A DNA stretch of 62,059 nucleotides from Candidatus Falkowbacteria bacterium (GTDB taxonomy: Bacteria > Patescibacteriota > Patescibacteriia > UBA11705), in NCBI GenBank assembly GCA_003518055.1, contig DOZJ01000002.1, forward strand, positions 378,304 to 440,362, read 5' to 3'. A program made the position numbers and the translations under genes. Shown here piece by piece: positions 1,380 to 28,217 of the stretch. Position 1 is the stretch's first letter. The number at the start of each line of letters is the position of its first letter. Below the pieces are notes generated by a model. It was not told where the DNA came from. It searched no databases and worked only from the letters and a program-made list of their open reading frames with translations.

Positions 1380-1460
1380 GATACAAATTACGAATATTTA
1401 CATATGTTACAAATAAGTCAATATCATTTGTAATATTCGTATTAATATGTAATTTGTATC
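1380..1460. repeat. AT-rich nested palindrome (left boundary element of the 1.4-8.1 kb island)
   Basis: Outer arms GATACAAATTAC / GTAATTTGTATC. Inner arms TTACAAAT / ATTTGTAA and ACGAATAT / ATATTCGT. Related to the element at 7970-8079. Confidence 0.7.
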
Positions 1461-1487
1461 TCGTGTGTTATCAATTTTTAATCCTTT

Positions 1488-2660
1488 TTAATACAAATCG
1501 CTCACTTCCCTGTAGCAGTGCTGCTGCATAATATGACTCATGCGCTCATTGTCGCTGCGGATTACCACCAGCATGGATCTGAACCGGCTGGGGGAATCAA
1601 AATTACCCAAGCGGCTAATATCAAGAAACCCGGTTTCTTCCTTGCCTCGGAATAATGAATAGGGAAGGGAGGTGGACATCAAAATCCCTTCTTTGGTCCA
1701 CGGCCGTTCGATCGAAATTTCAAACACTCTCAGCGCTTGGCCGCCATGCTCATCGAGCGCGAACTTGGTGAAGGCCAGCCAATGAATCCATTCGCTGATT
1801 TTTTCGCCGTTAGCCATGATGAAACCAACAGGCCCATGTCCGGTCTGCAATTCCGAGAGATACAACACGCGCGATGGCCCGCCCGGTTCTTTGTGATGAA
1901 TATATTCGTCCGGATTTTCCACGAAAAGCATGCTGTCATTAAAATTTTCCCGGTAGCCTGTTTTGCCAAGGAATGTGACAAACCGCTGAAAGTCGGCCGC
2001 GGATTTACAACCGGTATGCGCCGACGGGAACTTAACTCGGCGGCCATGATTTAGAATATAGTCTAGACCGATATTATCATTGGATGCATTTTTATAACCA
2101 TTGACTTCAAAGGAAAAAACACCGCTGGCGCACGCCACATAAATTGTTTTGACGATGTAGTTGAATATCACCGAAAAAATAATCGTTCCTTTGCGCACAC
2201 AGGTGATTGATGAAGTCGCGCCCGTGATTGACGCCGGAGCTTCGAACATGGCTTCCCATTGAGCGGCGCAGTCAATCGATTCAAACAAATCGCCGATCCG
2301 CTGGAGCGGGTTGGCTTTTGCTAGGGTGTCAATGAAGATTCTAAGTTGTTTTGATCGATCAGTCGGATCGGAAAAGAACATCAGCGGCTGACGCTCTGGG
2401 TCACTGTCACTCGGCCAGCGGTCTTTGTATCGTCCTTCAAGTTCTTCAGTCACCAAAATTCCGTGGCGGTCAAAAGCGGTCAGTCTCTGACTGATGACGA
2501 TTTCGGGAATGGCGTCGAGACCGAGAGTATCGCCTTTGCCGTATCTGACTAATTGCAGCGCTTCGGTCACGGTTGTTTCCATCAGATTGCGCCATGCGGC
2601 AATTAACGCGTTGATACATTCATTGCAATAAACAGCTTCAATCCCTTGCAGCGGTTTCAT
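1488..2660 (-). CDS. Hypothetical protein with weak IMPase/FBPase-superfamily-like metal-binding motifs (390 aa)
   Basis: ORF track (1488..2684). I place the start at MKPLQG (2660), preceded by GGTGGAGG. VTEELEG is followed 26 aa later by FSDPTDRS, which loosely matches EE ... DP[ILV]D[GS][ST]. Weak assignment. Confidence 0.6.
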   Translation of the reverse strand: MKPLQGIEAVYCNECINALIAAWRNLMETTVTEALQLVRYGKGDTLGLDAIPEIVISQRLTAFDRHGILVTEELEGRYKDRWPSDSDPERQPLMFFSDPTDRSKQLRIFIDTLAKANPLQRIGDLFESIDCAAQWEAMFEAPASITGATSSITCVRKGTIIFSVIFNYIVKTIYVACASGVFSFEVNGYKNASNDNIGLDYILNHGRRVKFPSAHTGCKSAADFQRFVTFLGKTGYRENFNDSMLFVENPDEYIHHKEPGGPSRVLYLSELQTGHGPVGFIMANGEKISEWIHWLAFTKFALDEHGGQALRVFEISIERPWTKEGILMSTSLPYSLFRGKEETGFLDISRLGNFDSPSRFRSMLVVIRSDNERMSHIMQQHCYREVSDLY

Positions 2661-2989
2661 CCTGCCTCCACCGGTGGTTGTCAACGTTCTGGTTTTTATC
2701 TTAGGTCGTTATTCCAAAATGTCAATCCACGAACAAGATAGCGTCAAGAAGTTTGAAATTCAAACCTATATTATCAATGGTAACGGAGAGTCTTTGCGGC
2801 CTTTCTTACCTGTGCATGAATCTTATCTATGCCTCTTGACATCGTGTAAAATATACACTATGATAATCGTGTAAGAGTTCCTTACAATTTGTCTGTAGAA
2901 ATGAAGCGTGAGTGTTTAGCGATATTTTGAGATAAAAATATCTTATTTAAGCGTAATTAGGCGATTTTCTTCTAAACTCTGGCAAAATA

Positions 2990-3018
2990 TTGACATTTTC
3001 TCATAAATATGATAAGTT
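2990..3018 (+). promoter_or_regulatory. Sigma70-like promoter for the 3136-7894 operon
   Basis: TTGACA (2990-2995), 17-nt spacer, TAAGTT (3013-3018). A second candidate, TTGACA-17-TATGAT, lies at 2836-2864. Confidence 0.45.
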
Positions 3019-3135
3019 TTTATGTTAAATTTCCTTTAGAATTGATATTGAATTCAGAGGAAATTTTATGTCGTTTGACAACTCACAGTTTATAAGAAAA
3101 ACTCAAACACTCCACACCGATAGAGGGAAAGGATC

Positions 3136-3981
3136 ATGATGAAAGCCATCACGTTGAGTCACGAGGATCGTGTTTATGAAGTAGCAAAGCTGGTCGGTGA
3201 GGACAGCCACGGCCGATACCGTTTGTATCGTTGTCGTGTCCCCGGAGTCGATCGAGAATATCTGCTTCAGATTGCTTCGGAGTTTAAACACAATGGTTCG
3301 TTGGATAAAGCGGCTTTTTTCCTTCGGGAATTGAAGCGCGTGGCTGATGAACTTGAAGCAGAATATAACCGGCTTGAACCGGGGAAGATGTTGAATTACC
3401 ATCTGTCATTCCCTGAACTGGTTGATAGTTTTGTGTGCGAGGAGCAGGGAAATCGCCGGGTCAATGTTCTGGCTTTCCGAAATGTTGACGTTATCAAGCG
3501 GCTGGTGCCGATTGCTAATATTGTTGAAATTGATGCGCTTCGGTGCGATCTGCGCAGCAGCGCTTGGGTCATGGGCAAGCTGTTGAAAATTCTGGTCCTA
3601 ACCCAGAGCATGAAGGTAGTCATCAATCAGGTTAATGGCGCCAATACTCTGCTCGATGCTGATCAGCATTATGTCGTGATCTTTGATTGGGCCGACTCGG
3701 AAATCCAGTCGGGTGAAATTCTTGCGGCCGTCGCCAGACGAGAAATCGGCAACGCCGCGTTCACCGTGATTGACCTCCTTGGAGGTGATTACAAGACGCG
3801 AACATTCCCCGAAGACGAGAGTGAATCCGCTGCCTATGCCGAGTACACGGCTTTTCTGCTGGGAATGGCTGACGGCCATCACAAGGATGCGGCGAAAGCG
3901 CACCGAGATTTTTACGCCGTCGTTGACAAGTATTGGTCGCGTGAGTTCTATCCTTTTACCACACACCCGCGATCCCGTTAA
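3136..3981 (+). CDS. Protein-kinase-fold-like protein, probably a pseudokinase (281 aa)
   Basis: ORF track. WVMGKLLKILVLTQSMKVVINQVNGANTLLDADQHYVVIFDWADS aligns by eye to the kinase catalytic-loop to DFG region (..vvHrDlkpeNiLld....vkliDFg.s). Q replaces the catalytic Asp and FDW replaces DFG. Confidence 0.6.
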   Translation: MMKAITLSHEDRVYEVAKLVGEDSHGRYRLYRCRVPGVDREYLLQIASEFKHNGSLDKAAFFLRELKRVADELEAEYNRLEPGKMLNYHLSFPELVDSFVCEEQGNRRVNVLAFRNVDVIKRLVPIANIVEIDALRCDLRSSAWVMGKLLKILVLTQSMKVVINQVNGANTLLDADQHYVVIFDWADSEIQSGEILAAVARREIGNAAFTVIDLLGGDYKTRTFPEDESESAAYAEYTAFLLGMADGHHKDAAKAHRDFYAVVDKYWSREFYPFTTHPRSR

Positions 3982-4001
3982 ATCGGGAAGGGGAGGGCAA
4001 G

Positions 4002-5171
4002 ATGGGACTTCGGACTCTAACCAGAGATGCCTATACTAATGTTAAATCAAGTGCTACTTTGGGTGGAACCAAAAGTGCTACTCATGCGGCTGAAGAAAGG
4101 GTTCATCGCGGTGAAGGTCTGGATCCGCTAGTTGATCCAAAGGGGCCGCCGCATCTCGGACCGGTTCGCATGTCTTTGCCTAGATATGAGAAAGTGGGAA
4201 ATCTTTGGCGTTTGACCGTCGGCATTCCTATGGCGGTAGAAAAATTGCTTGATACTACTGGGTCAATGGATAACAATGTTAATCTGGCTTTTGAAAACTG
4301 TCAGAAAGAATATGATCTCTATAGAGCTGGTGCTGTTCCTGTCCTTCATCGATATGATGTTCAGATGGCCACAGGTGCCTTCGGTGATGTTGAGGATTTT
4401 ACGAGGCTTGGTTTGCCCTTCTATTGCCGATCGCAGTTTGAGATGGATGAAAAGATCGCGGTTCAGATGTCTCTCATGGTCGCGGCCAAGAAGGGCTGGG
4501 GCAACGGCAAGGAAGACCCCCAGTTTGGCTTGTTTGGCGCTGCCTATTTGACTCAGGCGAGAATCAATGCCTACGGCCTGAAGTCTTATCACTTTACAGT
4601 GTCTGACGAACCCGTTGTGCCCGTAATTAATTATGACTGGCTGAAGCATGTCTTCGGTGATGATGTTTTGACCCATTGCGCGAGAATCGGATACCAGATG
4701 AGCGCCAATAAACTTCCCGATACGGCTCAGGTGGTCAAAGATTTACAGACAAGGGCACACGCATTTTTCCTCCTCGTAGATAATAGTCACTACGTAATTG
4801 AACAGTGGAAGGCTCTCTATGGTTCAGATCATTTCGTTTTTCTCCCGAATGGCACTACGGAGTATATCCATTTTGTGAACGCATGCATTATCGGTTTGAC
4901 CGAAGGTGTTCTTGATCTTCAAACCGCAAGGGAATTTTTGTTGGAGCATAAGCTTTCTCGTCCGGAAGCTGATAGTGTTGTTCGTGCTGTGGCCCATATT
5001 CCTCTTGGAGCTCAGGCTCAGTATCCGAACTTCGATAATCTGCCCAAGGCCGGCGATCTCTTCCGCGAGAAGACTGATCTCTGGCCGGTGGAACCGAGTG
5101 AAGTTGAGAATTCGGAAGCTACCGATGAGACTGCTGATGGCGAAAAGCCCGGCGGACCTGTCTGGCTCTGA
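4002..5171 (+). CDS. von Willebrand factor A (vWA)-like protein (389 aa)
   Basis: ORF track. GGGGAGGG SD. LLDTTGSMDNN resembles the vWA MIDAS motif DxSGSM (TerY-like). 20-nt gap from the upstream gene. Confidence 0.6.
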   Translation: MGLRTLTRDAYTNVKSSATLGGTKSATHAAEERVHRGEGLDPLVDPKGPPHLGPVRMSLPRYEKVGNLWRLTVGIPMAVEKLLDTTGSMDNNVNLAFENCQKEYDLYRAGAVPVLHRYDVQMATGAFGDVEDFTRLGLPFYCRSQFEMDEKIAVQMSLMVAAKKGWGNGKEDPQFGLFGAAYLTQARINAYGLKSYHFTVSDEPVVPVINYDWLKHVFGDDVLTHCARIGYQMSANKLPDTAQVVKDLQTRAHAFFLLVDNSHYVIEQWKALYGSDHFVFLPNGTTEYIHFVNACIIGLTEGVLDLQTAREFLLEHKLSRPEADSVVRAVAHIPLGAQAQYPNFDNLPKAGDLFREKTDLWPVEPSEVENSEATDETADGEKPGGPVWL

Positions 5172-5213
5172 TCTTTAATCCCTGAAATTAACCCCGAACT
5201 GAGGGAGGTGCGC

Positions 5214-6599
5214 ATGACCCGAAAGGTTTATGTGGTCACCGACCTCGGTCCGGGGGATGGTGGCAAGGGCGGAGTCGTTCACAAGATCGCTTCGATGCTG
5301 AAAGCGTTTCTGATTATCAAAGTGGGAGGCGCCCAAGGCAGCCATGGTGTCCGCACTTCGCGAGGTGAAAGCTTTGCGTTCAGTCAGTGGGGCTGTGGCA
5401 CGTTCGAGGGCATTCCGACTCACTTGTCACCTCGATTTATCGTTTCAATTGAAGGATTGTTGAATGAGGCCGAAGCCTTGCGCTATGGCCATGGCGTTCA
5501 CGATCCATTCAGTCTGCTGACGGTTGATCATCTGGCGCTCTGCTCAATTCCGTACCACGGTATTTCCTCGCGGCTAAAAGAATTGGCGCGCGGAAAAAAT
5601 CCGAGAGGTACGATTGGTACGGGAGTCGGCGAAGCTTTTCGCTATGCCCAAAGCCATCCGGAATTAAGTTTGAGAGTCAACGATTTGGCCCGGCCTGATA
5701 TGCGTGAGTTTCTGGCCGCAGTCCGCGATCAGATTACTCACGATCTCGAGCCAGTCATTCAGAGTGGATTTTTTGAAGAAGATGATCCGTTTGTCGAAGA
5801 AAATGTTCAGAAATTATTTGATGATGAGTTCCTGGATTTCATTACCGCTCGGGCCTATGCCTTGGCGCGAAATCTACAGGTAGTGGATCGCGATTATTTA
5901 CGGCAAATGTTCCTGCGTACTAATCGCCCGGCTGTAGTTGAAAGTTCACATGGAGTTCTGACTGATCACTACTGCGGTTTTGAACCGCATACTAGTGCCA
6001 TTCGGACTCTTCCAATGTTCGCGCATTCTATGCTTCGAGACGCTGATTTTGATGGTCAAATTGTCAATATCGGCGTGCATCGCGCATATGAAATCCGCCA
6101 CGGCGCTGGACCAATGCCAACGGCTGATGACGCCATGGGTGAAACTCTTTTGCCCGGCAGTCATAAAGAAGAAAACCGCTGGCAGGGAAAAGTTCGCGTC
6201 GGTCCGCTCGATTTGGTGCTCATGCGCTACGCGATAGCGTGCTGCGGGGGTCCCAAAGCTTTTGACGGACTGGCGATTACTTGGTTTGATCAGGTCCATG
6301 AAAATGGTGACTGGCAAATTTGTGATCATTACAAAAACGCGAAAGACAGAGAGTTTTTCACCCCTGATGGCGAGCTCAAAGTCAGTGTTGGCGACAACAT
6401 TGAACGGCTCATTTATCAGGAAGGTCTTGGGCAACAGCTTCAAGGTTGTATTCCCGAGATCAGTTCGATCCCTGTTCCCTTGAACGCGAACCGCGACGAG
6501 CTCTTCGAGCTCTGCGCCCGCGTTCTGCAGGAAAGACTTTCCGTCCCGGTGAGAATGGTCTCGCTGGGACCGACCGAAACCGACAAGGTCTGCAAGTAA
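5214..6599 (+). CDS. Divergent adenylosuccinate synthetase (PurA/AdSS)-family protein (461 aa)
   Basis: ORF track (5208). ATG at 5214 follows GAGGGAGG. Serial PurA motif matches: DLGPGDGGKGG vs GDEGKGK; GGAQGSHGV vs GGHNAGHT; RGTIGTGVGEAF vs TTGRGIGPAY; VESSHGVLTD...PHTSA vs LEGAQGTLLD...PFVTSS; HGAGPMPT vs GAGPFPTE. Confidence 0.7.
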   Translation: MTRKVYVVTDLGPGDGGKGGVVHKIASMLKAFLIIKVGGAQGSHGVRTSRGESFAFSQWGCGTFEGIPTHLSPRFIVSIEGLLNEAEALRYGHGVHDPFSLLTVDHLALCSIPYHGISSRLKELARGKNPRGTIGTGVGEAFRYAQSHPELSLRVNDLARPDMREFLAAVRDQITHDLEPVIQSGFFEEDDPFVEENVQKLFDDEFLDFITARAYALARNLQVVDRDYLRQMFLRTNRPAVVESSHGVLTDHYCGFEPHTSAIRTLPMFAHSMLRDADFDGQIVNIGVHRAYEIRHGAGPMPTADDAMGETLLPGSHKEENRWQGKVRVGPLDLVLMRYAIACCGGPKAFDGLAITWFDQVHENGDWQICDHYKNAKDREFFTPDGELKVSVGDNIERLIYQEGLGQQLQGCIPEISSIPVPLNANRDELFELCARVLQERLSVPVRMVSLGPTETDKVCK

Positions 6600-6622
6600 C
6601 CCCACAGCACAGGAAGAAGCCA

Positions 6623-7894
6623 ATGACAGATGTGAAAGTTCCCGTGACTCCCGTGTCTCCGACCGCTACTCCGACTCCTGCTTCGTCTCCCGAACCCGTG
6701 GTCGCTCCGCTGCCCGTCGTCGACGAGCTCATCGCACGGCTGAACACGCTCGGCGTCGACCCCGACACGATCAGCAAGATCAAGTCCGAGCTCGGTGCCT
6801 CCAGCCTCGACGACTTGCCGAACCTGACCGAGGAAGATCTCCTCAAGGTCGGCATGAAGGCGCTCCCTGCAAGGAAGCTGGTCCTGGCGCTGAAGCCGGC
6901 AGTCCCGACGGCGGTCGAAGTCGGATCCATGATGGGATCCAGTTCGGCCGATCTCGTCAACCTGCTGGCACCAGTTCCTGAGAGCCGCTCCATGCTCGAC
7001 GGCCTCAGCCTCGTCCAGATCGGGAAGATCGAGCGGACGGTCGTGTCGAACGGCATTCGCGCCGCTCTCGCGAGTCGTGCCGGCCTCTTCGATGTGCCGG
7101 CCTATCTGCTCGAGCTCATGAACGACTTCGTCACCAACCGCATGGAAGAGCCTGCGCCGCAGTCCTACTACGATCTGGAAGACGAGGTTGCGAAGCAGGA
7201 CAACGCCGAGGTTCTGCGCCTGCTCAAGGTCAGCGGTCGCTACACGACGAAGGAACGCAAGCATGAGTTCCTCGGTCGGATCGGTCGCCTCTGGCAGCCG
7301 GCCAAGACCTTCCAGGAGCAGCTCCAGGCCTGGTACGAGGCCTATCTCAAGGTCGCCGGCAGTCCCGCGGCCATGATGGCGGCGATGACAAGCCTCGCTG
7401 GTGGGGGCCGATCCGTTCTGCCGGTCGTCACCTCGACGCCCGACACCTCGCCTCTGCACGACGGTGCTCAGCTCGTGATCCAGTCGATCAATGCAGCATT
7501 CGCCGGACGGAACATCCCCGCGGCCATGGCGCTGGCCTTCGATGCCGAACGCATCAACGCGTTCCTCACGAGCGCGGACGTCATCCGCTATACAGGTTCG
7601 GTCAATCGCGAGGAGCTCGCACGTACGCTGGGCAAGCGGCTCGGCAGTACGCTGGTGACTCCCGACTACCGTCGGCTCGAGAACGTGCTCGTTCAGTTCG
7701 TACTGAGCGTGTACGAGATCGACGCTCGCGCACCGCTCGGTACGCCCCAGGAGCTGCAGTACATCATGGCGCTGTACATGCTCGGCCAGAACATCCCGTG
7801 GGATCGCCTTTTCGATGGCGTGACCAACGAGGGAGGCAGGGCCAGCAACAAGCTCACCGGCATCGGCGGCCGGGGCAAGCGCGACGACCTCTAG
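6623..7894 (+). CDS. Very G+C-rich hypothetical protein with P/T-rich N-terminus and SAM (sterile-alpha-motif)-like segment (423 aa)
   Basis: ORF track frame 6446..7894. I start at ATG 6623, preceded by AGGAAG. Third codon positions are almost all G/C. NLTEEDLLKVGMKALPARKLVLALK resembles the SAM-domain C-terminal consensus. The antisense 488-aa ORF is judged a shadow. Confidence 0.6.
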   Translation: MTDVKVPVTPVSPTATPTPASSPEPVVAPLPVVDELIARLNTLGVDPDTISKIKSELGASSLDDLPNLTEEDLLKVGMKALPARKLVLALKPAVPTAVEVGSMMGSSSADLVNLLAPVPESRSMLDGLSLVQIGKIERTVVSNGIRAALASRAGLFDVPAYLLELMNDFVTNRMEEPAPQSYYDLEDEVAKQDNAEVLRLLKVSGRYTTKERKHEFLGRIGRLWQPAKTFQEQLQAWYEAYLKVAGSPAAMMAAMTSLAGGGRSVLPVVTSTPDTSPLHDGAQLVIQSINAAFAGRNIPAAMALAFDAERINAFLTSADVIRYTGSVNREELARTLGKRLGSTLVTPDYRRLENVLVQFVLSVYEIDARAPLGTPQELQYIMALYMLGQNIPWDRLFDGVTNEGGRASNKLTGIGGRGKRDDL

Positions 7895-7934
7895 TCGTGA
7901 CTCCAAGTTCTTTTTCTGAATAAGTTATAATTTT

Positions 7935-7966
7935 CCGAGTAATTAATAGTTACTCGGTTTTTTTTT
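7935..7966 (+). terminator. Strong intrinsic terminator ending the 3136-7894 operon
   Basis: CCGAGTAA (7935-7942) pairs with TTACTCGG (7950-7957), followed by nine Ts. Confidence 0.8.
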
Positions 7967-7969
7967 GGA

Positions 7970-8079
7970 GATACGAATTACAAATTGGTACAAATAATAC
8001 AAAATTCGCTTGAGAACTATATGTGCGATAGTTATCTGCAATATTTGTAATATTAGTATAAGATTTGTAAATTTGTATC
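7970..8079. repeat. AT-rich nested palindrome (right boundary element of the island)
   Basis: GATACGAATTACAAATT ... AATTTGTAAATTTGTATC, with multiple TACAAAT/ATTTGTA heptamers. Outer arms are near-identical to those at 1380-1460. Confidence 0.65.
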
Positions 8080-8210
8080 CCAAGATTTGTAAAAAAAAAG
8101 ACACCAACTGATATTGGTGCTTATTTTTTTTGCAAATTCACTTATCTCGCTTGCCCGCCGAAGTCTCTTGACCGCCGAAATCTTGATGAAGGCGGTTGAC
8201 GCAGGTGGGC

Positions 8211-10088
8211 TTATCTTGCTTTCTCGCTTGAAACTATTTGAGGCAAAAACACTCGACTCGCGTACAGCCTCGTCGCCGTGAGACGATATCCTGAATCCCA
8301 AAATCTGCTATGCCCATCGATTAAGGACGCATGCGGGGTTTTGATTCCTCCTCGCCGCGGATAAAACTTAGCGAAACCTCTGTGCATCAGTCGGTATTGC
8401 ACCGAGTCGCGTTCCAATTCCTCGATATAAATTTTTCGCGCTTTGCGATTATGTAGAATTCTCCCGTTATCGTAGAAATAAGGAACCAGTAACGCATTTC
8501 GCAGTTCGTGGATTGCGGATTCTGTACCCACCCACACTGCGCCAAATAGCACGTGAGTCCAATGACTTTCTCCAAGAAGGGGACTGCTATCATCAAAGTC
8601 GTGAACTCTCAACGCATCATTGTCGTCCTTATCGAGCCAGAACATGACCACTTCATTTATGATTTTATTCTGAGCAAAATAGGTGTTCAGCAGTTCCTTG
8701 ATTGTTTCTTTATACCTAACATCAGTGTTTTGCCTGACGAAAATCGCCGCATCGCAGTCAGATGTTTTGTCTCCATAACCCTTGAGACGAGAGCCATAAA
8801 TCAAGAATACCGGGTAGATATAGGATGAAAGTTCAGCATCTGTCTCGATAATAACTTTAATAATCTTCCTGATTTCTGCGATTTCCGGTTGTAGAAAGCG
8901 TAGGTTCGCTGAGAATGGCCCTGATAAAGCCGGCACGGTTAATCCAAGCAATTCGAGGCTTGTATCTGTGACAATCTTCAAACTATGAAGTCGAAAGAAG
9001 GCCTTTGTTAAAGCATCACGGACTGCTGAGAATTCACATTTCCACAGTGCGAGCAGTTGCTCTTTATAGTTCGTATAAAGACTGGTCGCTCTGATTAAAT
9101 CCGTTTCAGCCGAAGCTTCAACCGCTTTTCGTACACCGTCAATGAACGCCAACTGGCATTCTACTTTTGTTCCGAGATCTGCAAACAATACAGCTTCATC
9201 GAGATCGAGAGTCCCGCTAAGAATCGCATTCTTGATTCCATTTCCGGTCTTTTCAATCGCCTGACGCTTGCGATCCTTGATGAGCCACGCGATCCGCTTT
9301 TCGAGGATATCGCCGAAATCATCACGCTCAATGGCGAAAAACTGCTCAGCTAATCTTTCTTGAATAATTTTTACGGATACAGGTGGTGCTTCTTCGTCAG
9401 ATGGTTCCAAAATCACATCATGCGATTTAATGAATCCCATGTCAGCCAAGACCGGCAAAGTCTCTTCAATGCTCTTCCTTAATGTTTCTTCCTCGCATTG
9501 TTCCAGCAGGTGAAAAACCGCACCAACCGTTAAAAAACCTTTTTCCACCAATTTCGGAATCAGATGCGCGGCCTTGACTACTCGCGGCAAATCATTGACA
9601 CGCTTTTCCACATCCATGACATCGCCGTCAACAAAGTTGGCGCGGACGTCAAGCATTGAAAGCAAATTATTCCAGGTGGTCATATAGGCAATCCGGAAAC
9701 GCGTGATTTCCAAGCGCAATTTCTCTTCCGCTGATTTCCAGTTAACATCAGGCAGAAACTCAAACGGCAGATACAGAATAATTCGCTGATAATCAGTTGA
9801 ATCTTCGAGTAAATCACTCAAAGAAGCGTACATCTCCGCGACCGTTATTTCATCGAGAAAGCCATCGTGAACAGCTTGTTCGAGTTCAATGCCAGGTTTT
9901 GGCAGCCGTGAAATAACCGCATCCAGCCGTTCATTCAGTTTTCTTCGCCAGACTAGCTCAGTCTGAAATTCGCGGTTGCTCGCTATATTATCCGGCCACA
10001 ATTTTTTGGCTAATTCCGGCCTTGAAAACAGCTCAACCACGGGCGGTACGATTATAATATCTCCGGTAGTATCTCCCATGTATTTCAT
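8211..10088 (-). CDS. Large protein with C-terminal Pol-beta-superfamily nucleotidyltransferase motif (625 aa)
   Basis: ORF track (to 10118). I start at MKYMGD (10088), preceded by AAGGAG. YGSRLKGYGDKTSDCDAAIFV fits G-S-x3-G-x5-S-D-x-D. The long helical N-terminal region is unassigned. Confidence 0.6.
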   Translation of the reverse strand: MKYMGDTTGDIIIVPPVVELFSRPELAKKLWPDNIASNREFQTELVWRRKLNERLDAVISRLPKPGIELEQAVHDGFLDEITVAEMYASLSDLLEDSTDYQRIILYLPFEFLPDVNWKSAEEKLRLEITRFRIAYMTTWNNLLSMLDVRANFVDGDVMDVEKRVNDLPRVVKAAHLIPKLVEKGFLTVGAVFHLLEQCEEETLRKSIEETLPVLADMGFIKSHDVILEPSDEEAPPVSVKIIQERLAEQFFAIERDDFGDILEKRIAWLIKDRKRQAIEKTGNGIKNAILSGTLDLDEAVLFADLGTKVECQLAFIDGVRKAVEASAETDLIRATSLYTNYKEQLLALWKCEFSAVRDALTKAFFRLHSLKIVTDTSLELLGLTVPALSGPFSANLRFLQPEIAEIRKIIKVIIETDAELSSYIYPVFLIYGSRLKGYGDKTSDCDAAIFVRQNTDVRYKETIKELLNTYFAQNKIINEVVMFWLDKDDNDALRVHDFDDSSPLLGESHWTHVLFGAVWVGTESAIHELRNALLVPYFYDNGRILHNRKARKIYIEELERDSVQYRLMHRGFAKFYPRRGGIKTPHASLIDGHSRFWDSGYRLTATRLYASRVFLPQIVSSEKAR

Positions 10089-10350
10089 TGATATCTCCTT
10101 TGACTGTTTTGACTCCATTTTGCTAATTTTAGTCCTCCAAGTTGGCCTGGAATCTTATAACATTTTTTACTTTTTGTCAAGTTTTGCTTATCGTTCCTCA
10201 GGAGCGGTTGCAACTATAAATAATTATAACAAAAAGAATTGTTGCTCAAATCAAAACAATCGAAAAACATTGATTGTTATTTTTAAGTCGAGTTTAACTG
10301 AAATCGGGTTCAGTTCCAAAAACGACAATTATTTGTTATTATTAACTTAT

Positions 10351-12896: not shown

Positions 12897-14318
12897 ATGC
12901 GCAAGGTTCTCGCAAGCCTGTTCTTCTCGCTCATGGTGGTCGCCATCATGGGCAACCGTTCGTGCGTGCCGGTCGAGCCGGAGGAGCCGGCCTGCCTGGA
13001 CGACGGCTTCGTCTGCACCGCCGACAGCGAGTGCTGCGGCGGTCTGTGCTGGAATAACCCCGGCGATCCGTTCGCGATCTACGGCGAGTGCCGGAGCACG
13101 AATGACGGCTGGTGCAACACGGACGCAGACTGCCCCGACGGCCAGTTCTGTACGGGGGAGGGTTACTGTCTGGGGGACTTCGGTCCGTGCCAGGTCGAAG
13201 GCCTTGAGGCCTGCGTGCCGGGTGAAAACAAGCATTTCGATTCCTGTGTGGCCGCGCGCAGCGGTGAGCTCCGGCTCGTCCGTAGCCATTGCGGCCGCGA
13301 GAACACTTGTGTGTTCACATCGCAGTCCACTGTCGCTTGTGAGCCGGTTTCGGATCTCGAGGGAGTTCCTTGCGCCGATGACGCGGACTGTGCAGGATCG
13401 CTCTTCTGTGACCACGGTGTGTGCAGTATGCCCTGCACCAATGAGTATGACTGTCAGGAAGGGCAGCTCTGCTACTCATGGACCAACACCTGCCAGTGGC
13501 CGAACAGCGGCGAGTTCTGCAACGTGTCCTCGGATTGTCCGAACTATAGCGGCGACTCCAACCAGTGGCCCCACGGCGGGCAGATCTGCTATCAGGGCCA
13601 TTGCGACTACTACATCTTCGGTCCGTGCGAGGTTGAGAGCCAGATGCTCTGCGCGCCCGAGGACGGTCCGGCCGAATTCTACCGCTGTGTGGTCGAAGAC
13701 GGCACGGAGGTCCTTCACTGGATCCGCGGCACCTGCGGTGCGGCTTATGAGTGCGTCAAGAACTCGGACGGCAACGGACAGTGCATTGCGCCGCAGCCGG
13801 CAGAAAGCTCGGTCCAAGTGTCTCGGCTCATGAGCCAGTCTCAGCTCTACTACGGTGAGAACCAGATGTTCGTCTTCCGTCTTATGATCGTGGCGCTGGA
13901 CGGCTTCGTCGGCGAACACGGAGTGTTGAATGAGCTTTCGTTCAGCATTCAGATGTCGGAGAGGGATTATAGCCGAATTCATTACTGCAAGGTGGTGGAG
14001 TACCAAACCGGCTATATGCTCGACTACAGCGACAACCTCGAGCTGCGGACCTCCGAGACTGGTAGTCAGTACGCTTTGGTCAACTTTCACTTCGAGGGTG
14101 ATGTCCTGCTGCCAGTCGGCGCGTATACTAATCTGGAGCTGAGGTGCTTTGTCGCTTCCGGCGGAGCTCCATACGAGGCCATCCAGACAGGTTTCATCGG
14201 CAGGCTCGGCACATCCCCGGCAGACGCCATCGTGGTCTATGGGGTCGAGAGCGGGGAGCGCCTTTCGGTGTCCCCAACATATTCGGAGGATACCTTGGTA
14301 TCGATCCTGACTCGCTAA
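12897..14318 (+). CDS. Secreted cysteine-rich repeat protein, very G+C-rich (473 aa)
   Basis: ORF track. N-terminal signal-like segment MRKVLASLFFSLMVVAIMG. Repeated modules such as CTADSECCGGLC, CNTDADCPDGQFC, CADDADCAGSLFC, CTNEYDCQEGQLC and CNVSSDCPNY. Alternative-frame and antisense ORFs are judged shadows. Confidence 0.7.
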   Translation: MRKVLASLFFSLMVVAIMGNRSCVPVEPEEPACLDDGFVCTADSECCGGLCWNNPGDPFAIYGECRSTNDGWCNTDADCPDGQFCTGEGYCLGDFGPCQVEGLEACVPGENKHFDSCVAARSGELRLVRSHCGRENTCVFTSQSTVACEPVSDLEGVPCADDADCAGSLFCDHGVCSMPCTNEYDCQEGQLCYSWTNTCQWPNSGEFCNVSSDCPNYSGDSNQWPHGGQICYQGHCDYYIFGPCEVESQMLCAPEDGPAEFYRCVVEDGTEVLHWIRGTCGAAYECVKNSDGNGQCIAPQPAESSVQVSRLMSQSQLYYGENQMFVFRLMIVALDGFVGEHGVLNELSFSIQMSERDYSRIHYCKVVEYQTGYMLDYSDNLELRTSETGSQYALVNFHFEGDVLLPVGAYTNLELRCFVASGGAPYEAIQTGFIGRLGTSPADAIVVYGVESGERLSVSPTYSEDTLVSILTR

Positions 14319-24836: not shown

Positions 24837-25907
24837 TTAACGACGCCGACCGCCGCCTGAGCTGCGGAATCCGCCGCCGCTGCTCCTGCGGGCGCCTCCG
24901 CCGCCCCAGCCGCTGCTTCTCGGCGCTGCCGGTCTGGTCGCAGCCGGCCTGGTGCCGCCGCCGCTCGGGGTTGTATGCCAGCCGGGCTTGGCCGGAGGTG
25001 TCCGTCCAGCCGGTGCCGCTTCGGGCTGCTTGGTGGCGCCAGCGCCGAATCCCGTCGCCTTGCGCTTGGTCTGGTTCGGGTCGCGCGCCTGATAGTCGCG
25101 GGTCGTTCCGGCTCGTCCGGCTACGCCCTGCCCCGGCTTGTTATACTGGGTTGACTTGGCGTACTTGCTCGGCTTCTCTGCCGACTTGATGACCTTCGAG
25201 GTCGGTCGAGTCGTCTTGGAGATCGGCGACACCTGTGTCTTGGTGATCTGCCGACTCGATCGGAACGAATCTCGACGTGAGCTGAGCGCCGGACCGGCAA
25301 AGACCGGTCGCGGCGAGTAGAAGCCCGTCCGATACATCGGTACGTAGTATGGCCGCGGCGAGAACATGTAGCCGAGCAGTAGTCCGGTGGCAAAGCCACT
25401 GCCATGATGGTAGGCCATGGGGTAACTATAATAATAATCATTGTAGCCGTGGACGTGCTGACTGTAGCCGCCAGAGATCACGACCTGATTCGTGGTCGTA
25501 TTCCGCTCGAACTCTACCTGACCGATGGTGACTCCGTCTTCCTCCTTGCCGGTGGATGATGGAATGGCCACGAGGTCGACCAGCCGCTTGATGTCGTTCG
25601 ACTCTGGCAGCTCGCGGAAGACGACATAGTCGATCTTCCCATCCTGATCGATATCGACATTGTTGATTCCGGATTCGCCGTTGACCAGCGTCTCCATCTC
25701 TTCGATGCTCGCGACCTTGTTCTCGCGAATCATGGTCATAAGCGTCTCGAGATCGAAATCATCGGTCTTGACCGAGCCGGTGGTCTCCGTTTCAGTCTGG
25801 GTATACGTCTGATGGCTCGAGTGGGTACTTCGGCCGCAGCCGGCCCCGATAAAGATCATCAGGCTGAGAATAGCAAAAATAGGCAGAAAAACCCTCGGAT
25901 AGCGCAT
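24837..25907 (-). CDS. G+C-rich lipoprotein with DxDxDG Ca-binding-like loop, Tyr-rich segment and R/G/P-rich tail (356 aa)
   Basis: ORF track. AAGGAGG SD. Lipobox-like IGAGC. NNVDIDQDGKIDY. The C-terminus ends ...GGGGARRSSGGGFRSSGGGRRR. Confidence 0.65.
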   Translation of the reverse strand: MRYPRVFLPIFAILSLMIFIGAGCGRSTHSSHQTYTQTETETTGSVKTDDFDLETLMTMIRENKVASIEEMETLVNGESGINNVDIDQDGKIDYVVFRELPESNDIKRLVDLVAIPSSTGKEEDGVTIGQVEFERNTTTNQVVISGGYSQHVHGYNDYYYSYPMAYHHGSGFATGLLLGYMFSPRPYYVPMYRTGFYSPRPVFAGPALSSRRDSFRSSRQITKTQVSPISKTTRPTSKVIKSAEKPSKYAKSTQYNKPGQGVAGRAGTTRDYQARDPNQTKRKATGFGAGATKQPEAAPAGRTPPAKPGWHTTPSGGGTRPAATRPAAPRSSGWGGGGARRSSGGGFRSSGGGRRR

Positions 25908-26113: not shown

Positions 26114-26959
26114 GTGGGGATGGCTGAGACAGTTTTAAACGCTCCAACTCAGGAATCATATGTTCTGAAACGCGCTCTGACCAATCCGGTTACCATAGTG
26201 TCATTTATTCTTGGTGTCTTGTGTGGCATTCTGCTGGCTTCGGTTGATTTTAGTACGCTGTTTCTGGTTGGCTTGATTGTGTTTGTTGTGGTTGCGTTCG
26301 GATCCTTTATTTTGGATGTTACCACGCGCAAGGTATTTTTCTTGGAAGATTGGCTGAAGATCGTCAAGACGCAGATGAAGCAGCGACAAAACCGTGATGT
26401 TCATGATCTACGTCTTGAAATTGCCGAGTGTGGTCGGATTCCCGGAACCACCACCCGCGTAGTGGCGGCCAATAATCAATTTCGAGTGGTCGAGCGGGTT
26501 TTTGGCAAGATTGATCAAGTCCTGGCGCATAAATACAAGACCGGAGAAATTAAGTATGGCAAGTTTTTGGCCGCGGCCGAAGGTTTGTCAAAAGCGATTC
26601 TGTCACATTTGAGACAGATTGTTACTCTGCTCCAGAGTCTGGGAGCGCTGCAGCCAAACGACAAGAGACTGGAATTTTTAGAGCGGCTCACCAGCCAGAC
26701 ACCGCAATTTGAGGCGGAAAGAGATCGTCTCCGGCAGCAGGCCGAAAGAAAGACCAGGGTTTATATCGAGGTGGATCGCATTATCACTGAAAATGAAACC
26801 GCCATTGGGGCGCTTGAAACCATGCTCGACAAGATCGCCTCAACTCCCACTGATATGGTTAGTGCTGCTGACTTTGCGGATTTACTCAATCAAGTCGCTG
26901 ATATTTCTAACCGTCTCGACACCACCAAGCATGAGGAGCGTACCGATGACAATGGCTGA
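26114..26959 (+). CDS. xpaC: XpaC-like membrane/coiled-coil protein (281 aa)
   Basis: Two N-terminal TM helices then a long helical region. Sits immediately upstream of, and overlapping, a TelA-family gene, as in the B. subtilis xpaC-yaaN pair. Assignment is by architecture and synteny only. Confidence 0.45.
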   Translation: MGMAETVLNAPTQESYVLKRALTNPVTIVSFILGVLCGILLASVDFSTLFLVGLIVFVVVAFGSFILDVTTRKVFFLEDWLKIVKTQMKQRQNRDVHDLRLEIAECGRIPGTTTRVVAANNQFRVVERVFGKIDQVLAHKYKTGEIKYGKFLAAAEGLSKAILSHLRQIVTLLQSLGALQPNDKRLEFLERLTSQTPQFEAERDRLRQQAERKTRVYIEVDRIITENETAIGALETMLDKIASTPTDMVSAADFADLLNQVADISNRLDTTKHEERTDDNG

Positions 26960-28217
26960 ACAGCAGAGTCAGGCTTTGATGATTCCTGAAGATGTCCCAG
27001 CCGCGCGGCCGCTTATGGTTGCGACAAGAGATGATGAGGCGCTGAAGCGTGATCTCGGCTTGGCGACCGCTGCTGATCTGCGGACTGGTCCGACAGACAT
27101 GGTGCTTTTTGAAAAGGCTGGCAGTATCGCGCAGCAGCTTCTGACGGTTGATCTGACGGATCCGGCCGTCGGCCAGACCCAGCGCAAGATGATGGAATCC
27201 TTTGGCCAGACTGCCGAGCGCAAGTGCCACAAGTCTTCAGGGATGCTCAGCACACCGCTTGGCAAGATGAAGGGGCTCGATGGCCAGGATTCCGGTCTTG
27301 CATCTTCACTTTCGTCTCTGACAGCCAAGGTTCAGGATTTGAATCCGGGCAAGTACAAGCTTGATCCCTCTAAGTACGGCTTGCTTCGGCGATTCTTCAT
27401 CCGTTTGACGCTGATGGCTCCGCCTCTTCGGACTTATCTCGCCAAGTTCCAGTCTGGTGAGATGGCTATCAATCTAATCATTGATGCCCTTGAAAGTGGC
27501 AAGGAAAAGCTTGAGAGGAATAATGATGAACTTGAGACCGAGCAGACTGAGATGCGGCGCGCCACCTTCGAGTTGCAGCAGGCCATCAAGCTCGGTCATG
27601 CTCTCGATAAGCATTTGACCAATGTCCATGATTCCATTAATGCTTCTGCTTCAGAGGATGAGCGGCTCAAGAAGCGCTACGTGGCTGAGGAGCTCCTATT
27701 CCCGCTGCGTCAGCGCATCGAGGATCTCCAGCAGCTTCTGGCAGTCAATCAGATGGGTGTGATTGCCACTGAAGTACTGATGAAAAATAATCGGGAACTC
27801 ATCCGCGGTGTCAATCGCGCCATCAAGGTTACGACCCGGGCACTTCGCATCGCCGTCATGCTCAGTGTGGGGCTTCATGACCAGCAGTCAGTGTTTGCTC
27901 AGACCAGCGCAATCAATGATACCACGAATGAGCTGCTTGTTCAGGATGCGGCACAGTTGCGGACGCAGGGCGTCGCGATTCACAAGCAGGCGGCCAGCGC
28001 CATGCTCAACATCGAAATGTTGAAGCGGGCGATGGAAGATACCATGATGGCCTTTGATGAGATTTCTCAGTTCCGTCAGGAAGCCCTGCCCAAGATGCGC
28101 GCTGACATCGATGCTTTGGAGGAGCTCACTACCGGCGCTGACAACAAGATCCGTGAAATGGAACGGGGCAAGGCGGCTCGTCCGATGATCGATCTGGCCG
28201 TTTCCGAAGCGGCCTGA
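26946..28217 (+). CDS. telA: TelA/KlaA-family toxic-anion-resistance protein (423 aa)
   Basis: ORF track frame 26709..28217. I start at ATG 26946 after GAGGAG (26934-26939), a 14-nt overlap with xpaC. Long helical TelA-like pattern (YLAKFQSGEMAINLIIDALESGKEKLERNNDELETEQTEM...). Confidence 0.7.
   Translation: MTMAEQQSQALMIPEDVPAARPLMVATRDDEALKRDLGLATAADLRTGPTDMVLFEKAGSIAQQLLTVDLTDPAVGQTQRKMMESFGQTAERKCHKSSGMLSTPLGKMKGLDGQDSGLASSLSSLTAKVQDLNPGKYKLDPSKYGLLRRFFIRLTLMAPPLRTYLAKFQSGEMAINLIIDALESGKEKLERNNDELETEQTEMRRATFELQQAIKLGHALDKHLTNVHDSINASASEDERLKKRYVAEELLFPLRQRIEDLQQLLAVNQMGVIATEVLMKNNRELIRGVNRAIKVTTRALRIAVMLSVGLHDQQSVFAQTSAINDTTNELLVQDAAQLRTQGVAIHKQAASAMLNIEMLKRAMEDTMMAFDEISQFRQEALPKMRADIDALEELTTGADNKIREMERGKAARPMIDLAVSEAA

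Follow-up and report, generated by a model that had tools for sequence, protein, structure and literature searches.

An undescribed module of five genes (B-C-D-E and F) is conserved across the ultra-small Patescibacteria (CPR). It was found in a window of 62,059 nucleotides, the whole stretch of DNA analysed, from a Candidatus Falkowbacteria bacterium. The order B-C-D-E with a convergent F was seen at 35 loci in Patescibacteria genomes, representing Saccharimonadia, Paceibacteria-type, Microgenomates-type and Peribacteria lineages; the genome scan picks up close relatives only, and the spread is to be read as several classes and not as every genome. B, C, D, E and F are the only recurring neighbour families at these loci, and their pairwise-identity matrices correlate (r = 0.75-0.95), the unit diverging together. 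The operon is a truly co-conserved unit, and the initial annotation, which knew of no described system with this combination, agrees with the lack of a PADLOC match and of any published description in a literature search. The best guess from sequence is that the module forms a regulated GTP-dependent ligase complex, which would produce a non-canonical purine derivative.

Gene organisation and genomic setting

The features are listed in Table 1. Genes B to E are packed with gaps of 20, 42 and 23 nt, and each start is preceded by a purine-rich Shine-Dalgarno sequence (GGGAAAGGA, GGGAAGGGGAGGG, GAGGGAGG and AGGAAG); the four packed genes, their ribosome-binding signals, the strong terminator and the divergent gene A are all as first described. 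More than one TTGACA-17-nt promoter had been proposed, but only one passes the scan, as a consensus match; a second TTGACA, at 2990, lacks a good -10 hexamer at the 17-nt spacing. The leader of the operon gave no match to an Rfam family. Gene F, which adjoins E in 31 of the 35 distinct related loci, had been overlooked, being a conserved fifth gene of the module outside the reported region 1380-8079. The IMPase/FBPase-like assignment of A was upheld at the level of the IMPase superfamily by profile or structure tests, while its inclusion in the system was not, as none of the 35 related loci has this gene.

Table 1. Features of the module and its surroundings in the window
Feature	Position	Strand	Description
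AT-rich palindromic element, left	1380-1460		Hairpin z = -4.0; begins GATACRAATTAC, finishes AATTTGTATC
Gene A	1488-2660	Divergent from operon	390 aa, IMPase/FBPase-like
Sigma-70-like promoter match	2836..2864	+	TTGACA-17-TATGAT, 11/12 positions, ~270 nt upstream of B
Gene B	3136..3981	+	Pseudokinase of 281 aa; fold like that of protein kinases, non-conserved catalytic residues
Gene C	4002..5171	+	389-aa vWA-fold protein, MIDAS-like D84-x-T86-x-S88
Gene C, tail	C-terminal		Disordered, acidic, ends in conserved W/Y-L
Gene D	5214..6599	+	461-aa predicted AdSS-like GTP-dependent ligase
Gene E	6623..7894	+	423-aa protein, strongly GC3-biased
Gene E, domains	SAM-like domain at ~residues 35-90		Disordered Pro/Ala-rich N-terminus; small SAM-like/(HhH)2-like domain
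Gene E, remainder			~300-aa all-alpha domain, no assigned fold
Intrinsic terminator of B-E operon	7935..7966	+	10-bp stem and T-run; hairpin 7935-7957, z = -4.3
AT-rich palindromic element, right	7970-8079		Hairpin z = -6.2; begins GATACRAATTAC, finishes AATTTGTATC
Terminator-like hairpin downstream of F	8101..8120	-	8-bp stem, then T-run on - strand
Gene F	8211..10118	-	635 aa, convergent with operon; conserved N-terminal domain and C-terminal Pol-beta-type nucleotidyltransferase domain

The region had also been described as a G+C-rich island bracketed by related palindromes. Two related AT-rich palindromic elements do exist, and six of the ten ATTTGTAWW sites of the window lie inside the two palindromic spacers. 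However, the elements enclose A-E and not the conserved unit, with the conserved F left outside and the non-conserved A inside. The G+C shift is likewise real but is almost wholly that of gene E (GC 0.64, GC3 0.81); B, C and D have a G+C content of 0.49-0.51 compared with a window mean of about 0.45, and three unrelated genes in the window are also GC3-rich. The GC3 of E is 0.65-0.86 in most other non-host-associated lineages, and in most lineages GC3 is raised in E and C and not in F and the flanks. Because E and C carry the same codon bias in other lineages, the shift is a property of the operon and not a sign of transfer. On the chromosome the module lies among core genes, with adenylate kinase, RpoD and DnaG on its left and CysRS on its right. 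The block is not a horizontally acquired island, given the spread over several classes with varying neighbours, the joint divergence and the recurring codon bias.

The encoded proteins and the core shared with phages

The initial annotation had called B pseudokinase-like, C a vWA protein, D a divergent AdSS-like protein and E a protein with a SAM-like domain, and these assignments held up. B matches PHROG 3043 'kinase' (E = 8e-6) and, in BLASTP, the Ser/Thr kinase gp260 of Sebata (E = 8e-11). With the family profile of B, 31 of 32 PDB matches were protein kinases, and the best significant match, to CK2-alpha, was collinear (E = 0.001). The HRD Asp, the catalytic-loop Asn and the DFG Asp are not conserved, and the phage relatives have HGA where HRD is expected. 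C had no match to Pfam or PDB by sequence, and every one of its 473 relatives is named 'hypothetical'. Its AlphaFold2 model (pLDDT 91) matched integrin beta I-like and SpaC vWA domains in Foldseek (E = 1.5e-5, probability 1.0) as well as viral VWFA proteins, and D84, T86, S88 and D202 are invariant among 31 sequences.

Pfam SAM_TNK was found in 20 of the 30 members of the E family (best E = 1.5e-7) and is sub-threshold on the window copy (6.5e-4). The all-helical AlphaFold2 model of E is mediocre (pLDDT 68) and gave no significant match in a fold search; the likeness to the RAD51 N-terminal HhH domain and the RNA polymerase alpha C-terminal HhH fold concerns the N-terminal domain only. F has the motif G442-S443...D454-x-D456, in which the GS and D residues are invariant in the family. 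Eleven of 25 members match Pfam Polbeta (best E = 1.3e-6), and a search with the family profile led to GLD-2 poly(A) polymerase (E = 0.004) and to HI0073, a nucleotidyltransferase.

The genes B-C-D are also common in large phages, including cluster C mycobacteriophages such as Sebata, which carries the trio gp260-gp261-gp263. At 51 IMG/VR loci a C-like gene is present in 47, almost always directly upstream of D, and a B-like gene in about 32; these two are the only widely recurrent genes. The phage B proteins have an N-terminal J-domain, with HPD in 16 of 20. Both E and F are absent from the phage loci. The phage link and the J-domain of the phage pseudokinase had been overlooked.

Protein D and the function of the module

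D matches Pfam PF00709 (E = 6e-31) and PHROG phrog_1211 (E = 1e-38), which has a PurZ-type label. It has at least 965 relatives, with identities of 58-65% among the best 120 listed, and those bearing names are almost all Patescibacteria. In a residue comparison with E. coli PurA, D retains what is needed for GTP binding and gamma-phosphate transfer to an oxo group, namely the P-loop, Asp13, His41 and Asp333; the family shows no variation at G12, D13, G15, K16, G17, the His41 equivalent, D333 and G416, and almost none at S414. Replaced are the site for L-aspartate and several of the contacts to the IMP phosphate. The PurA loop T300-T301-G-R303-R-R305 has become (W/Y)-Q-G-x-(V/I) with a deletion, and the aspartate contacts T300, T301, R303 and R305, together with R143, T129, R131 and Q224, are replaced in 34 of 34 members. 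Loss of the aspartate-binding loop makes adenylosuccinate synthesis improbable, and D probably does not make this product, unless an aspartate site has been rebuilt from other residues. Phosphotransfer kept as in PurA with a replaced aspartate site suggests that D couples another amine.

These substitutions also bear on whether D is a drifted Patescibacterial adenylosuccinate synthetase in ordinary purine salvage (the IMP to AMP branch), with neighbours that are unrelated or loosely regulatory. This is unlikely, since D scores 69 bits on the NCBIfam purA equivalog model with its cut-off of 402, shows only 23% identity with E. coli PurA as opposed to about 60% between CPR classes, is strictly tied to four non-metabolic partners and has both its partners and its derived (W/Y)-Q/M-G loop in common with phages. 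In addition, purB was not seen near the module. On the other hand, the relatives of D are publicly annotated as adenylosuccinate synthetase, the Pfam match covers the full length, the catalytic Asp and His, the P-loop and the guanine-specific Asp are intact, and Patescibacteria depend on salvage. Genes for PRPP synthetase, phosphoribosyltransferase and NUDIX come after the module in some Saccharimonadia, and a NUDIX neighbour recurs in nine loci.

The preferred explanation, held with about as much confidence as doubt, is a vertically inherited Patescibacterial module with an altered PurA-like enzyme, in which B-C-D is an older core shared with large phages. D would activate a purine or related acceptor with GTP and couple an amine other than aspartate, giving a product other than adenylosuccinate. 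B and C might be non-catalytic partners of D, the basis for a physical interaction of the three being gene order and co-occurrence. C could bind its partner through the MIDAS site and the flexible acidic tail with its terminal aromatic-Leu anchor, and B could be a scaffold or allosteric switch which in phages might additionally recruit host Hsp70. In Patescibacteria E would be an abundant adaptor, its high expression being read from the conserved codon bias, and the active-looking nucleotidyltransferase F may add a further step to the pathway, such as nucleotidylation of the product or of a macromolecular target. Such a module would have a routine, highly expressed function in a parasitic, nucleotide-scavenging lifestyle and not in strain-specific immunity.

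A conflict or defence role had been proposed initially. In this reading a vWA/pseudokinase sensor would control the synthesis by D of a purine-nucleotide signal or toxin, for anti-phage defence in bacteria and for counter-defence or takeover in phages. Ter/TerY-type conflict systems are known to contain pairs of vWA and kinase-fold proteins, D handles nucleotides and has an altered specificity, and F belongs to an enzyme class used in signalling defence systems. The B-C-D triad is found in many large phages, often holders of counter-defence genes, and its presence there is as compatible with conflict as with metabolism. This role is also unlikely. Defence systems are typically patchy, whereas order and content are conserved here over distant classes with joint divergence, much more widely than is usual for defence islands. 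Neighbouring genes are not defence genes and none is recurrent, an effector-like domain (nuclease, pore, NADase, protease) is absent, and the strong bias in codon use that is conserved in E and C points to constitutive high expression. The six proteins gave nothing significant against 5027 PADLOC models, the sole matches being A and F with E > 0.005.

A lower probability is given to an RNA-end modification or repair particle, in which C would be like Ro60-type vWA proteins, F would add 3' nucleotides to RNA, D would modify a purine in RNA and the HhH/SAM-like domain of E would bind nucleic acid. Phages lack E and F, hence these two cannot define the core function; TROVE, ligase and RtcB partners are absent, and there is no RNA gene in or beside the module. 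A polynucleotide kinase does lie two genes upstream of the triad in cluster C mycobacteriophages, but in two close Sebata relatives only and not at the other 49 viral loci. More in keeping with a particle are the nearest solved relatives of F (GLD-2-type poly(A)/terminal nucleotidyltransferases), the HhH resemblance of E and the loss from D of residues holding the free 5'-phosphate of IMP.

Very unlikely is a module for Hsp70-linked assembly or chaperoning. The vWA protein and the J-domain pseudokinase would then pair as co-chaperones in the manner of MoxR-vWA, with D as a GTP-dependent switch (SIMIBI-type) instead of a biosynthetic enzyme, and would assemble an abundant structure built from E in Patescibacteria, or in phages a structure of the virion or for host takeover. 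By structure AdSS falls in the P-loop NTPase group, which also has dimerising switches among its members, but D keeps the catalytic Asp and His specific to AdSS chemistry, beyond the nucleotide-binding residues. The J-domains of the phage pseudokinases are genuine, although the CPR pseudokinase has none, and the codon bias of E and C is typical of abundant proteins, although phages have no E. Proteins with vWA domains are recognised co-chaperones in phage assembly (PMC7824862).

Comparison with known systems

PurA (EC 6.3.4.4) has the same fold as D over the full length, with the P-loop GDxGKG, the catalytic Asp13 and His41, the guanine-specific Asp333, Ser414 and Gly416 in common. It differs in its intact aspartate loop and IMP contacts, and D is both far under the equivalog cut-off and invariably found within the B-C-D-E/F module. 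PurZ, an AdSS homologue with which phages make the 2-aminoadenine precursor, is likewise a phage-associated divergent AdSS with the label borne by phrog_1211. PurZ still uses aspartate, in contrast to D with its missing loop, and PurZ-type phage matches (Vibrio and others) are about 25% identical to D, no nearer than ordinary AdSS. DatZ/MazZ-like partners were not seen, the partners of D being a pseudokinase and a vWA protein.

In the TerY-P triad (vWA TerY, Ser/Thr kinase and PP2C) a MIDAS vWA protein also adjoins a kinase-fold protein in one operon. However, B is catalytically dead in all lineages, the PP2C phosphatase is missing and the third partner is AdSS-like. Genes for TerD, TerC and TerB are not adjacent, and the TelA gene of the window is 19 kb away; a summary of the Ter components is given in PMC7824862. 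The MoxR-vWA/J-domain co-chaperones of large phages (PMC7824862) similarly combine a vWA protein with a chaperone-recruiting partner, but here the AAA+ MoxR is missing, the J-domain is fused to the pseudokinase, an AdSS-like enzyme is linked and the CPR version has no J-domain.

The trio of cluster C phages (Sebata gp260, gp261 and gp263; Bixzunavirus) is annotated by similarity only, as kinase, hypothetical protein and 'PurA-like adenylosuccinate synthetase', and no functional study of these genes was found in the literature. Unlike the Patescibacterial module it has a J-domain on the pseudokinase, a small extra ORF between C and D, and neither E nor F. The three families and their order are nevertheless the same: C has a match in gp261 (E = 6e-6), D shares 33.5% identity with gp263, and common to both sides are the W-Q-G loop in D, the HGA-type dead catalytic loop in B, and in C the MG... 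N-terminus, the DxTGS MIDAS and an acidic tail ending in Leu.

A five-gene unit conserved in Patescibacteria

The genes B (kinase fold), C (vWA), D (AdSS-like) and E (SAM-like) follow one another on one strand, with the convergent nucleotidyltransferase gene F behind them, in related loci wherever the contig is long enough. A locus scan with one genome per species gave 35 related loci, from Saccharimonadia (environmental lineages and gut or oral Nanosyncoccus), Moranbacteria, Wildermuthbacteria, Daviesbacteria, Paceibacterota, Peribacteria and others. Unsupervised clustering of the neighbouring ORFs left B, C, D, E and F as the only families present in more than 9 loci. The pairwise-identity matrices of the five correlate with r = 0.75-0.95, and the families thus diverge as a unit. 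The operon recognised from this genome alone in the initial annotation is therefore conserved in others, with its order kept and with F as an additional member. Relatives of D number at least 965 at an E-value of 1e-10 or better; the best 120 of these are 58-65% identical, and those with a named source are nearly all Patescibacteria. C has 473 relatives, every one of them named 'hypothetical'.

The IMPase-like gene A, transcribed divergently from the operon, had been proposed as the phosphatase acting on the product of the system. It was found in 0 of the 35 related loci and is rejected in this role because of that absence.

The anatomy of the operon is largely as first described. The four plus-strand ORFs have the positions originally given, with gaps of 20, 42 and 23 nt between B and C, C and D, and D and E, and a purine-rich ribosome-binding site precedes each of the four starts. 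The strong terminator at the operon end was also recovered. TTGACA promoters with 17-nt spacing had been suggested upstream; one is a consensus match, and a second TTGACA (2990) is not followed at 17 nt by any acceptable -10 hexamer. An Rfam search revealed no riboswitch or leader RNA upstream of B or in the spacers. The sole Rfam match with an E-value below 1 was a CRISPR repeat inside gene A, taken as chance. A 488-aa antisense ORF (6440-7906, minus strand) overlies E; it is no gene but an artefact of the high G+C of E, and seven other loci show it too.

Features of the module and its surroundings in the window
Feature	Position	Strand	Description
Palindromic element, left	1380-1460		AT-rich, just past a gene end
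A	1488-2660	-	390 aa, IMPase-like, divergent from operon
Promoter match	2836-2864	+	TTGACA-17-TATGAT, consensus match
B	3136-3981	+	281 aa, kinase fold
C	4002-5171	+	389 aa, vWA
D	5214-6599	+	461 aa, AdSS-like
E	6623-7894	+	423 aa, SAM-like
Terminator	7935-7966	+	10-bp hairpin and T-run at operon end
Palindromic element, right	7970-8079		AT-rich, just past a gene end, related to left element
F	8211-10118	-	635-aa ORF, nucleotidyltransferase, convergent with operon

Some loci show peculiarities of their own. In a Saccharimonadia chromosome (OY970327.1; 12526-15430 of loci L002/L013) genes for a PRPP synthetase, a NUDIX protein, a phosphoribosyltransferase and a second NUDIX protein come straight after F, and a NUDIX neighbour is present in 9 of the 35 loci, which may point to a loose tie between the module and nucleotide salvage. 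Single in-frame stops interrupt otherwise intact C and/or F homologues in L009 (CAYPSC010000038.1), L016 and L018. These could reflect an alternative genetic code, sequencing errors or pseudogenes; reassignment of UGA is known in some Patescibacteria. L009 and two other loci carry Gammaproteobacteria or Fibrobacteres labels, probably due to mis-binning.

Composition and the question of an island

The block was first described as an island richer in G+C than its flanks and bracketed by palindromes. The shift is strong for E (G+C 0.64, GC3 0.81) but narrower than described, since B, C and D have only 0.49-0.51 in a window of about 0.45. The same bias is seen in most other lineages, where GC3 is 0.65-0.86 for E and 0.6-0.85 for C, with F and the locus averages near 0.45. 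Because the bias is found again in distant genomes, peaks at third codon positions and ranks the genes in the same way, it cannot stem from recent import into this genome. Codon-usage selection in abundantly expressed genes would be the simplest reading of the GC3 of E and C.

Neither an integrase nor a tRNA was found at the borders of the block. In its local context the module sits between core genes, those for adenylate kinase, RpoD and DnaG on one side and for CysRS further out on the other. Horizontal acquisition as an island is rejected: the recurrent GC3 bias, the lack of an integrase or tRNA at the borders, the occurrence in 35 genomes of several classes, the co-divergence of the families and the chromosomal neighbourhood all speak against it.

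The two palindromic elements are related to each other, as the initial annotation had it. They share the termini GATACRAATTAC...AATTTGTATC and repeated TACAAAT units, and a long hairpin is predicted in each (z = -4.0 for the left element and -6.2 for the right). No further copies occur in the window together with about 10 kb of additional left flank, and the elements are restricted to contigs of this organism, being absent from all the other loci analysed. As ends of an island they are ruled out because they are inverted-repeat hairpins and not direct repeats, are found in this organism only and do not enclose the conserved unit. Each may act as a terminator, bind a protein or be a miniature mobile element.

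Other genes in the window also attracted attention. Two strongly GC3-rich genes for secreted proteins, at 12897-14318 (plus strand, GC3 0.77) and 24837-25907 (minus strand, 0.73), have no Pfam match; one product is Cys-rich with a signal peptide, and the second resembles a lipoprotein and has a disordered tail rich in Arg, Gly and Pro. The composition of these two and of E suggests that a high GC3 is characteristic of a group of proteins that are probably abundant in this organism. The gene at 26709-28217 on the plus strand (GC3 0.63) encodes a member of the TelA family of toxic anion resistance (Pfam E = 5e-58). Its distance from the module is 19 kb, and no further Ter gene was noticed beside it. 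A 717-aa protein (52405-54558, plus strand) combines a metallo-beta-lactamase-fold domain with two cyclic-nucleotide-binding domains.

Folds and active sites of the encoded proteins

As single sequences only D was recognised; A, B, C, E and F gave no usable match in Pfam, NCBIfam or PADLOC and were identified from family alignments made out of the related loci. With profile or structure searches all five domain calls of the initial annotation, A to E, were borne out.

B matches a PHROG 'kinase' family (E = 8e-6) and is homologous to gp260 of mycobacteriophage Sebata (E = 8e-11), an annotated Ser/Thr kinase which itself matches Pfam Pkinase (1.7e-9). When the family profile was compared with PDB, kinases made up 31 of the 32 matches, collinear over both lobes (best E = 0.001). 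None of the beta3 Lys, the HRD Asp, the catalytic-loop Asn and the DFG Asp is conserved across the Patescibacteria family, and the phage relatives have HGA where kinases have HRD. B is accordingly a predicted pseudokinase, with the fold of a kinase and dead catalytic residues.

C has no match to the VWA families of Pfam and no PDB sequence-profile match even at E = 10. Its AlphaFold2 model (pLDDT 91) was compared by Foldseek and resembles the vWA domains of integrin beta I-like proteins and the SpaC pilus adhesin (E = 1.5e-5, probability 1.0) as well as many viral VWFA proteins. The MIDAS-like residues D84-x-T86-x-S88 and D202, with Thr in place of the first Ser, are invariant in 31 sequences. 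The final 16 residues are disordered and acidic, with a conserved W/Y-L at the very end. The top structural match was a BFVD model from Mycobacterium phage Sauce (A0A3G3M5V4, E = 3.6e-11, TM-score 0.60 on the query). At 595 aa that protein is much longer than C and may join the vWA protein to some other module.

E begins with a disordered N-terminus followed by a SAM-like/(HhH)2-like domain at residues ~35-90. This domain matches PF22931 in 20 of 30 family members (best E = 1.5e-7; the window copy, at E = 6.5e-4, falls below the cut-off), and its fold also resembles (HhH)2 domains. A PDB sequence-profile search returned SAM/HhH matches only, all of them non-significant. The model of E (pLDDT 68) has no significant fold match and the helical domain of ~300 aa matches nothing.

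In F the motif G-S...D-x-D is preserved, with G442, S443 and D454 invariant and D456 nearly so. Pfam Polbeta is matched by 11 of 25 family members and NTP_transf_2 by 9, the window copy alone remaining below the Pfam cut-off, and the family profile matches GLD-2 poly(A) polymerase in PDB (E = 0.004). By this motif and the palm-domain match F is a predicted nucleotidyltransferase of the Pol-beta superfamily. Gene A gave no match as a single sequence; a profile of its small family of divergent proteins (185 representative clusters) aligns, within the N-terminal 100 residues, with the PDB entries for IMPase, SuhB and FBPase (E = 3e-7 to 1e-5). Its metal ligands, E72, D98 and D101, do not vary, and nothing was matched by the C-terminal two thirds. 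Several members of the A family have an N-terminal helix-turn-helix domain.

D aligns over its full length with Pfam PF00709 (E = 6e-31; residues 14-456 on profile positions 8-413 of 416) but scores far below the equivalog cut-offs for purA (NCBIfam NF002223, 68.8 against 402 bits; TIGR00184, 62.4 against 395.6). In PurA the P-loop G12-G17, His41, Asp333, Ser414 and Gly416 serve in GTP binding, guanine recognition and phosphoryl transfer to the 6-oxo group. An alignment of 34 Patescibacteria members with E. coli PurA, whose numbering is used here, has G12, D13, G15, K16, G17, the His41 equivalent, D333 and G416 in 34 of 34 and S414 in 32; the His41 equivalent lies in a GSH motif and is one column off in the MAFFT alignment. 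L-aspartate is held in PurA by a loop with Thr300, Thr301, Arg303 and Arg305, and IMP is contacted by Arg143 of the partner subunit, Thr129, Arg131 and Gln224. In all members of the D family the stretch equivalent to T300-T301-G-R303-R-R305 is one residue shorter and reads (W/Y)-Q-G-x-(V/I). The IMP contacts are changed as well: position 143 is variable (L/H/F/V), 129 is I or V, 131 is T and 224 is H. The description of D in the initial annotation as a divergent AdSS-like protein is upheld. Judged from these residues, D would still activate an acceptor with GTP and would not use L-aspartate, and free IMP may not be its substrate either.

The phage PurA-like enzymes were also considered. D matches phrog_1211 (E = 1e-38), which also includes mycobacteriophage PurA-like proteins. 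PurZ, the enzyme of the 2-aminoadenine pathway, was compared through this family and through Vibrio-phage-type matches, which reach only ~25% identity, and no HD or MazG-type neighbour of the DatZ/MazZ kind was present among the recurrent genes.

Phage core, proposed function and known systems

The best phage matches of D come from ~200 cluster C mycobacteriophages (33-35% identity). In Sebata the kinase gene gp260 is followed by hypothetical gp261, small gp262 (88 aa) and PurA-like gp263; gp260 is a homologue of B and gp261 one of C. A profile scan of IMG/VR gave 51 loci that contain a D-like gene, most of them on contigs of 100-675 kb. A C-like gene is present in 47 of these, nearly always immediately upstream of D, and a B-like gene was detectable in ~32. 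These three are the only widely recurrent genes in the viral loci, the next family being found in 9. Nine viral loci encode a small protein of ~120 aa upstream of D and close to the C-like gene. Neither a mixed C alignment nor a single phage D sequence brought up anything new in scans of viral sequences, and Pnk was ruled out as a member of the phage module as it is found just in close relatives of Sebata.

The phage B proteins have an N-terminal J-domain (Pfam DnaJ, E = 6.7e-6) with the helix-II/HPD motif in 16 of 20; examples of the fusion to the pseudokinase are found in L073 (3731-4732) and L050 (5025-5993). The phage C proteins resemble C of Patescibacteria in their MG... N-terminus, in the DxTGS motif and in an acidic tail with Leu as its last residue. 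Both phage D proteins examined have the W-(Q/M)-G loop, and the D proteins of phages and Patescibacteria therefore form one derived clade. E and F were not found in the phages of the 51 IMG/VR loci except on two contigs of Patescibacteria type. These (L076, UViG_3300042731_008311; L090, UViG_3300028454_000294) have a Patescibacteria-type module with D 46-56% identical to that of the window, L090 also with E and F, and are either pieces of Patescibacteria genomes wrongly filed as viral or phages or mobile elements that have Patescibacteria as hosts.

A regulated ligase complex is the most likely account of these features. D would make a non-canonical purine derivative, C would bind and control it through the MIDAS site and the terminal anchor, and B, as a dead kinase, would act on it as a bound scaffold or switch. 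In phages the J-domain of B would bring in host Hsp70, and in Patescibacteria E, as a probably abundant adaptor, and the nucleotidyltransferase F would extend the pathway. The evolutionary and anatomical parts of this account are well supported, and we infer the chemistry and the interactions. A fuller reading, offered tentatively and with considerable doubt, is an ancient module of phages and Patescibacteria in which an AdSS descendant couples a GTP-activated purine to an amine other than aspartate, possibly a protein- or RNA-linked group, under control of the dead kinase and the vWA protein, in phages via host Hsp70; in Patescibacteria it would be a core, highly expressed system with E and F, underlying a nucleotide-dependent parasitic lifestyle.

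The defence or conflict role put forward as a hypothesis in the initial annotation is possible, but nothing found speaks positively for it: effector domains and defence neighbours are lacking, the distribution is not patchy, and among the PADLOC component models B to E had no match, with only non-significant ones for A (Cas11a, E = 0.028) and for F (PDC-S09, E = 0.0056). The same genes could also be explained, less well, by an RNA-end modification particle or by an Hsp70-linked assembly module. The loss of substrate residues, the equivalog score below threshold and the obligate partners contradict ordinary AdSS activity of D.

If the product of D is a new purine derivative, or an adduct of a purine with protein or RNA, this would be new enzymology for the AdSS fold. 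D is mislabelled in databases as a step of purine biosynthesis, and metabolic reconstructions that count it as purA will contain errors. Patescibacteria account for much of bacterial diversity, and no function is known for most of the genes conserved among them; the five-gene module, found in several classes and probably highly expressed, is a handle on their shared biology. The presence of its core in many large phages, including ~200 sequenced mycobacteriophages, links two sorts of obligate parasites that live on bacteria and points to shared host exploitation. Both settings are experimentally tractable: mycobacteriophages are open to engineering, and Saccharibacteria are naturally competent and have already been used for Tn-seq (PMC10633639).

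No published description of the module was found in the full-text literature, a coverage with most subscription papers outside it, which agrees with the initial annotation, to which no described system of this combination was known. The Aravind-group jumbo-phage survey treats phage J-domain and vWA co-chaperones and does not mention PurA or adenylosuccinate, and the Tn-seq supplements for Saccharibacteria have no 'adenylosuccinate' entry. The module is rated as a new kind of system made from known folds; a prior description is possible.

The closest relatives of the module are the uncharacterised mycobacteriophage trio gp260-gp261-gp263. Its parts are related by fold to PurA/PurZ, vWA proteins, protein kinases, Pol-beta nucleotidyltransferases and SAM-like domains. 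The TerY-P triad, which combines a vWA protein, an active Ser/Thr kinase and a PP2C phosphatase in one operon, resembles the module in pairing vWA with a kinase. No PP2C or other phosphatase was found among the recurrent neighbours of the module. Membership in TerY-P fails because the kinase is dead, PP2C is missing and A is not co-conserved, so the likeness is that of the vWA-plus-kinase pairing.
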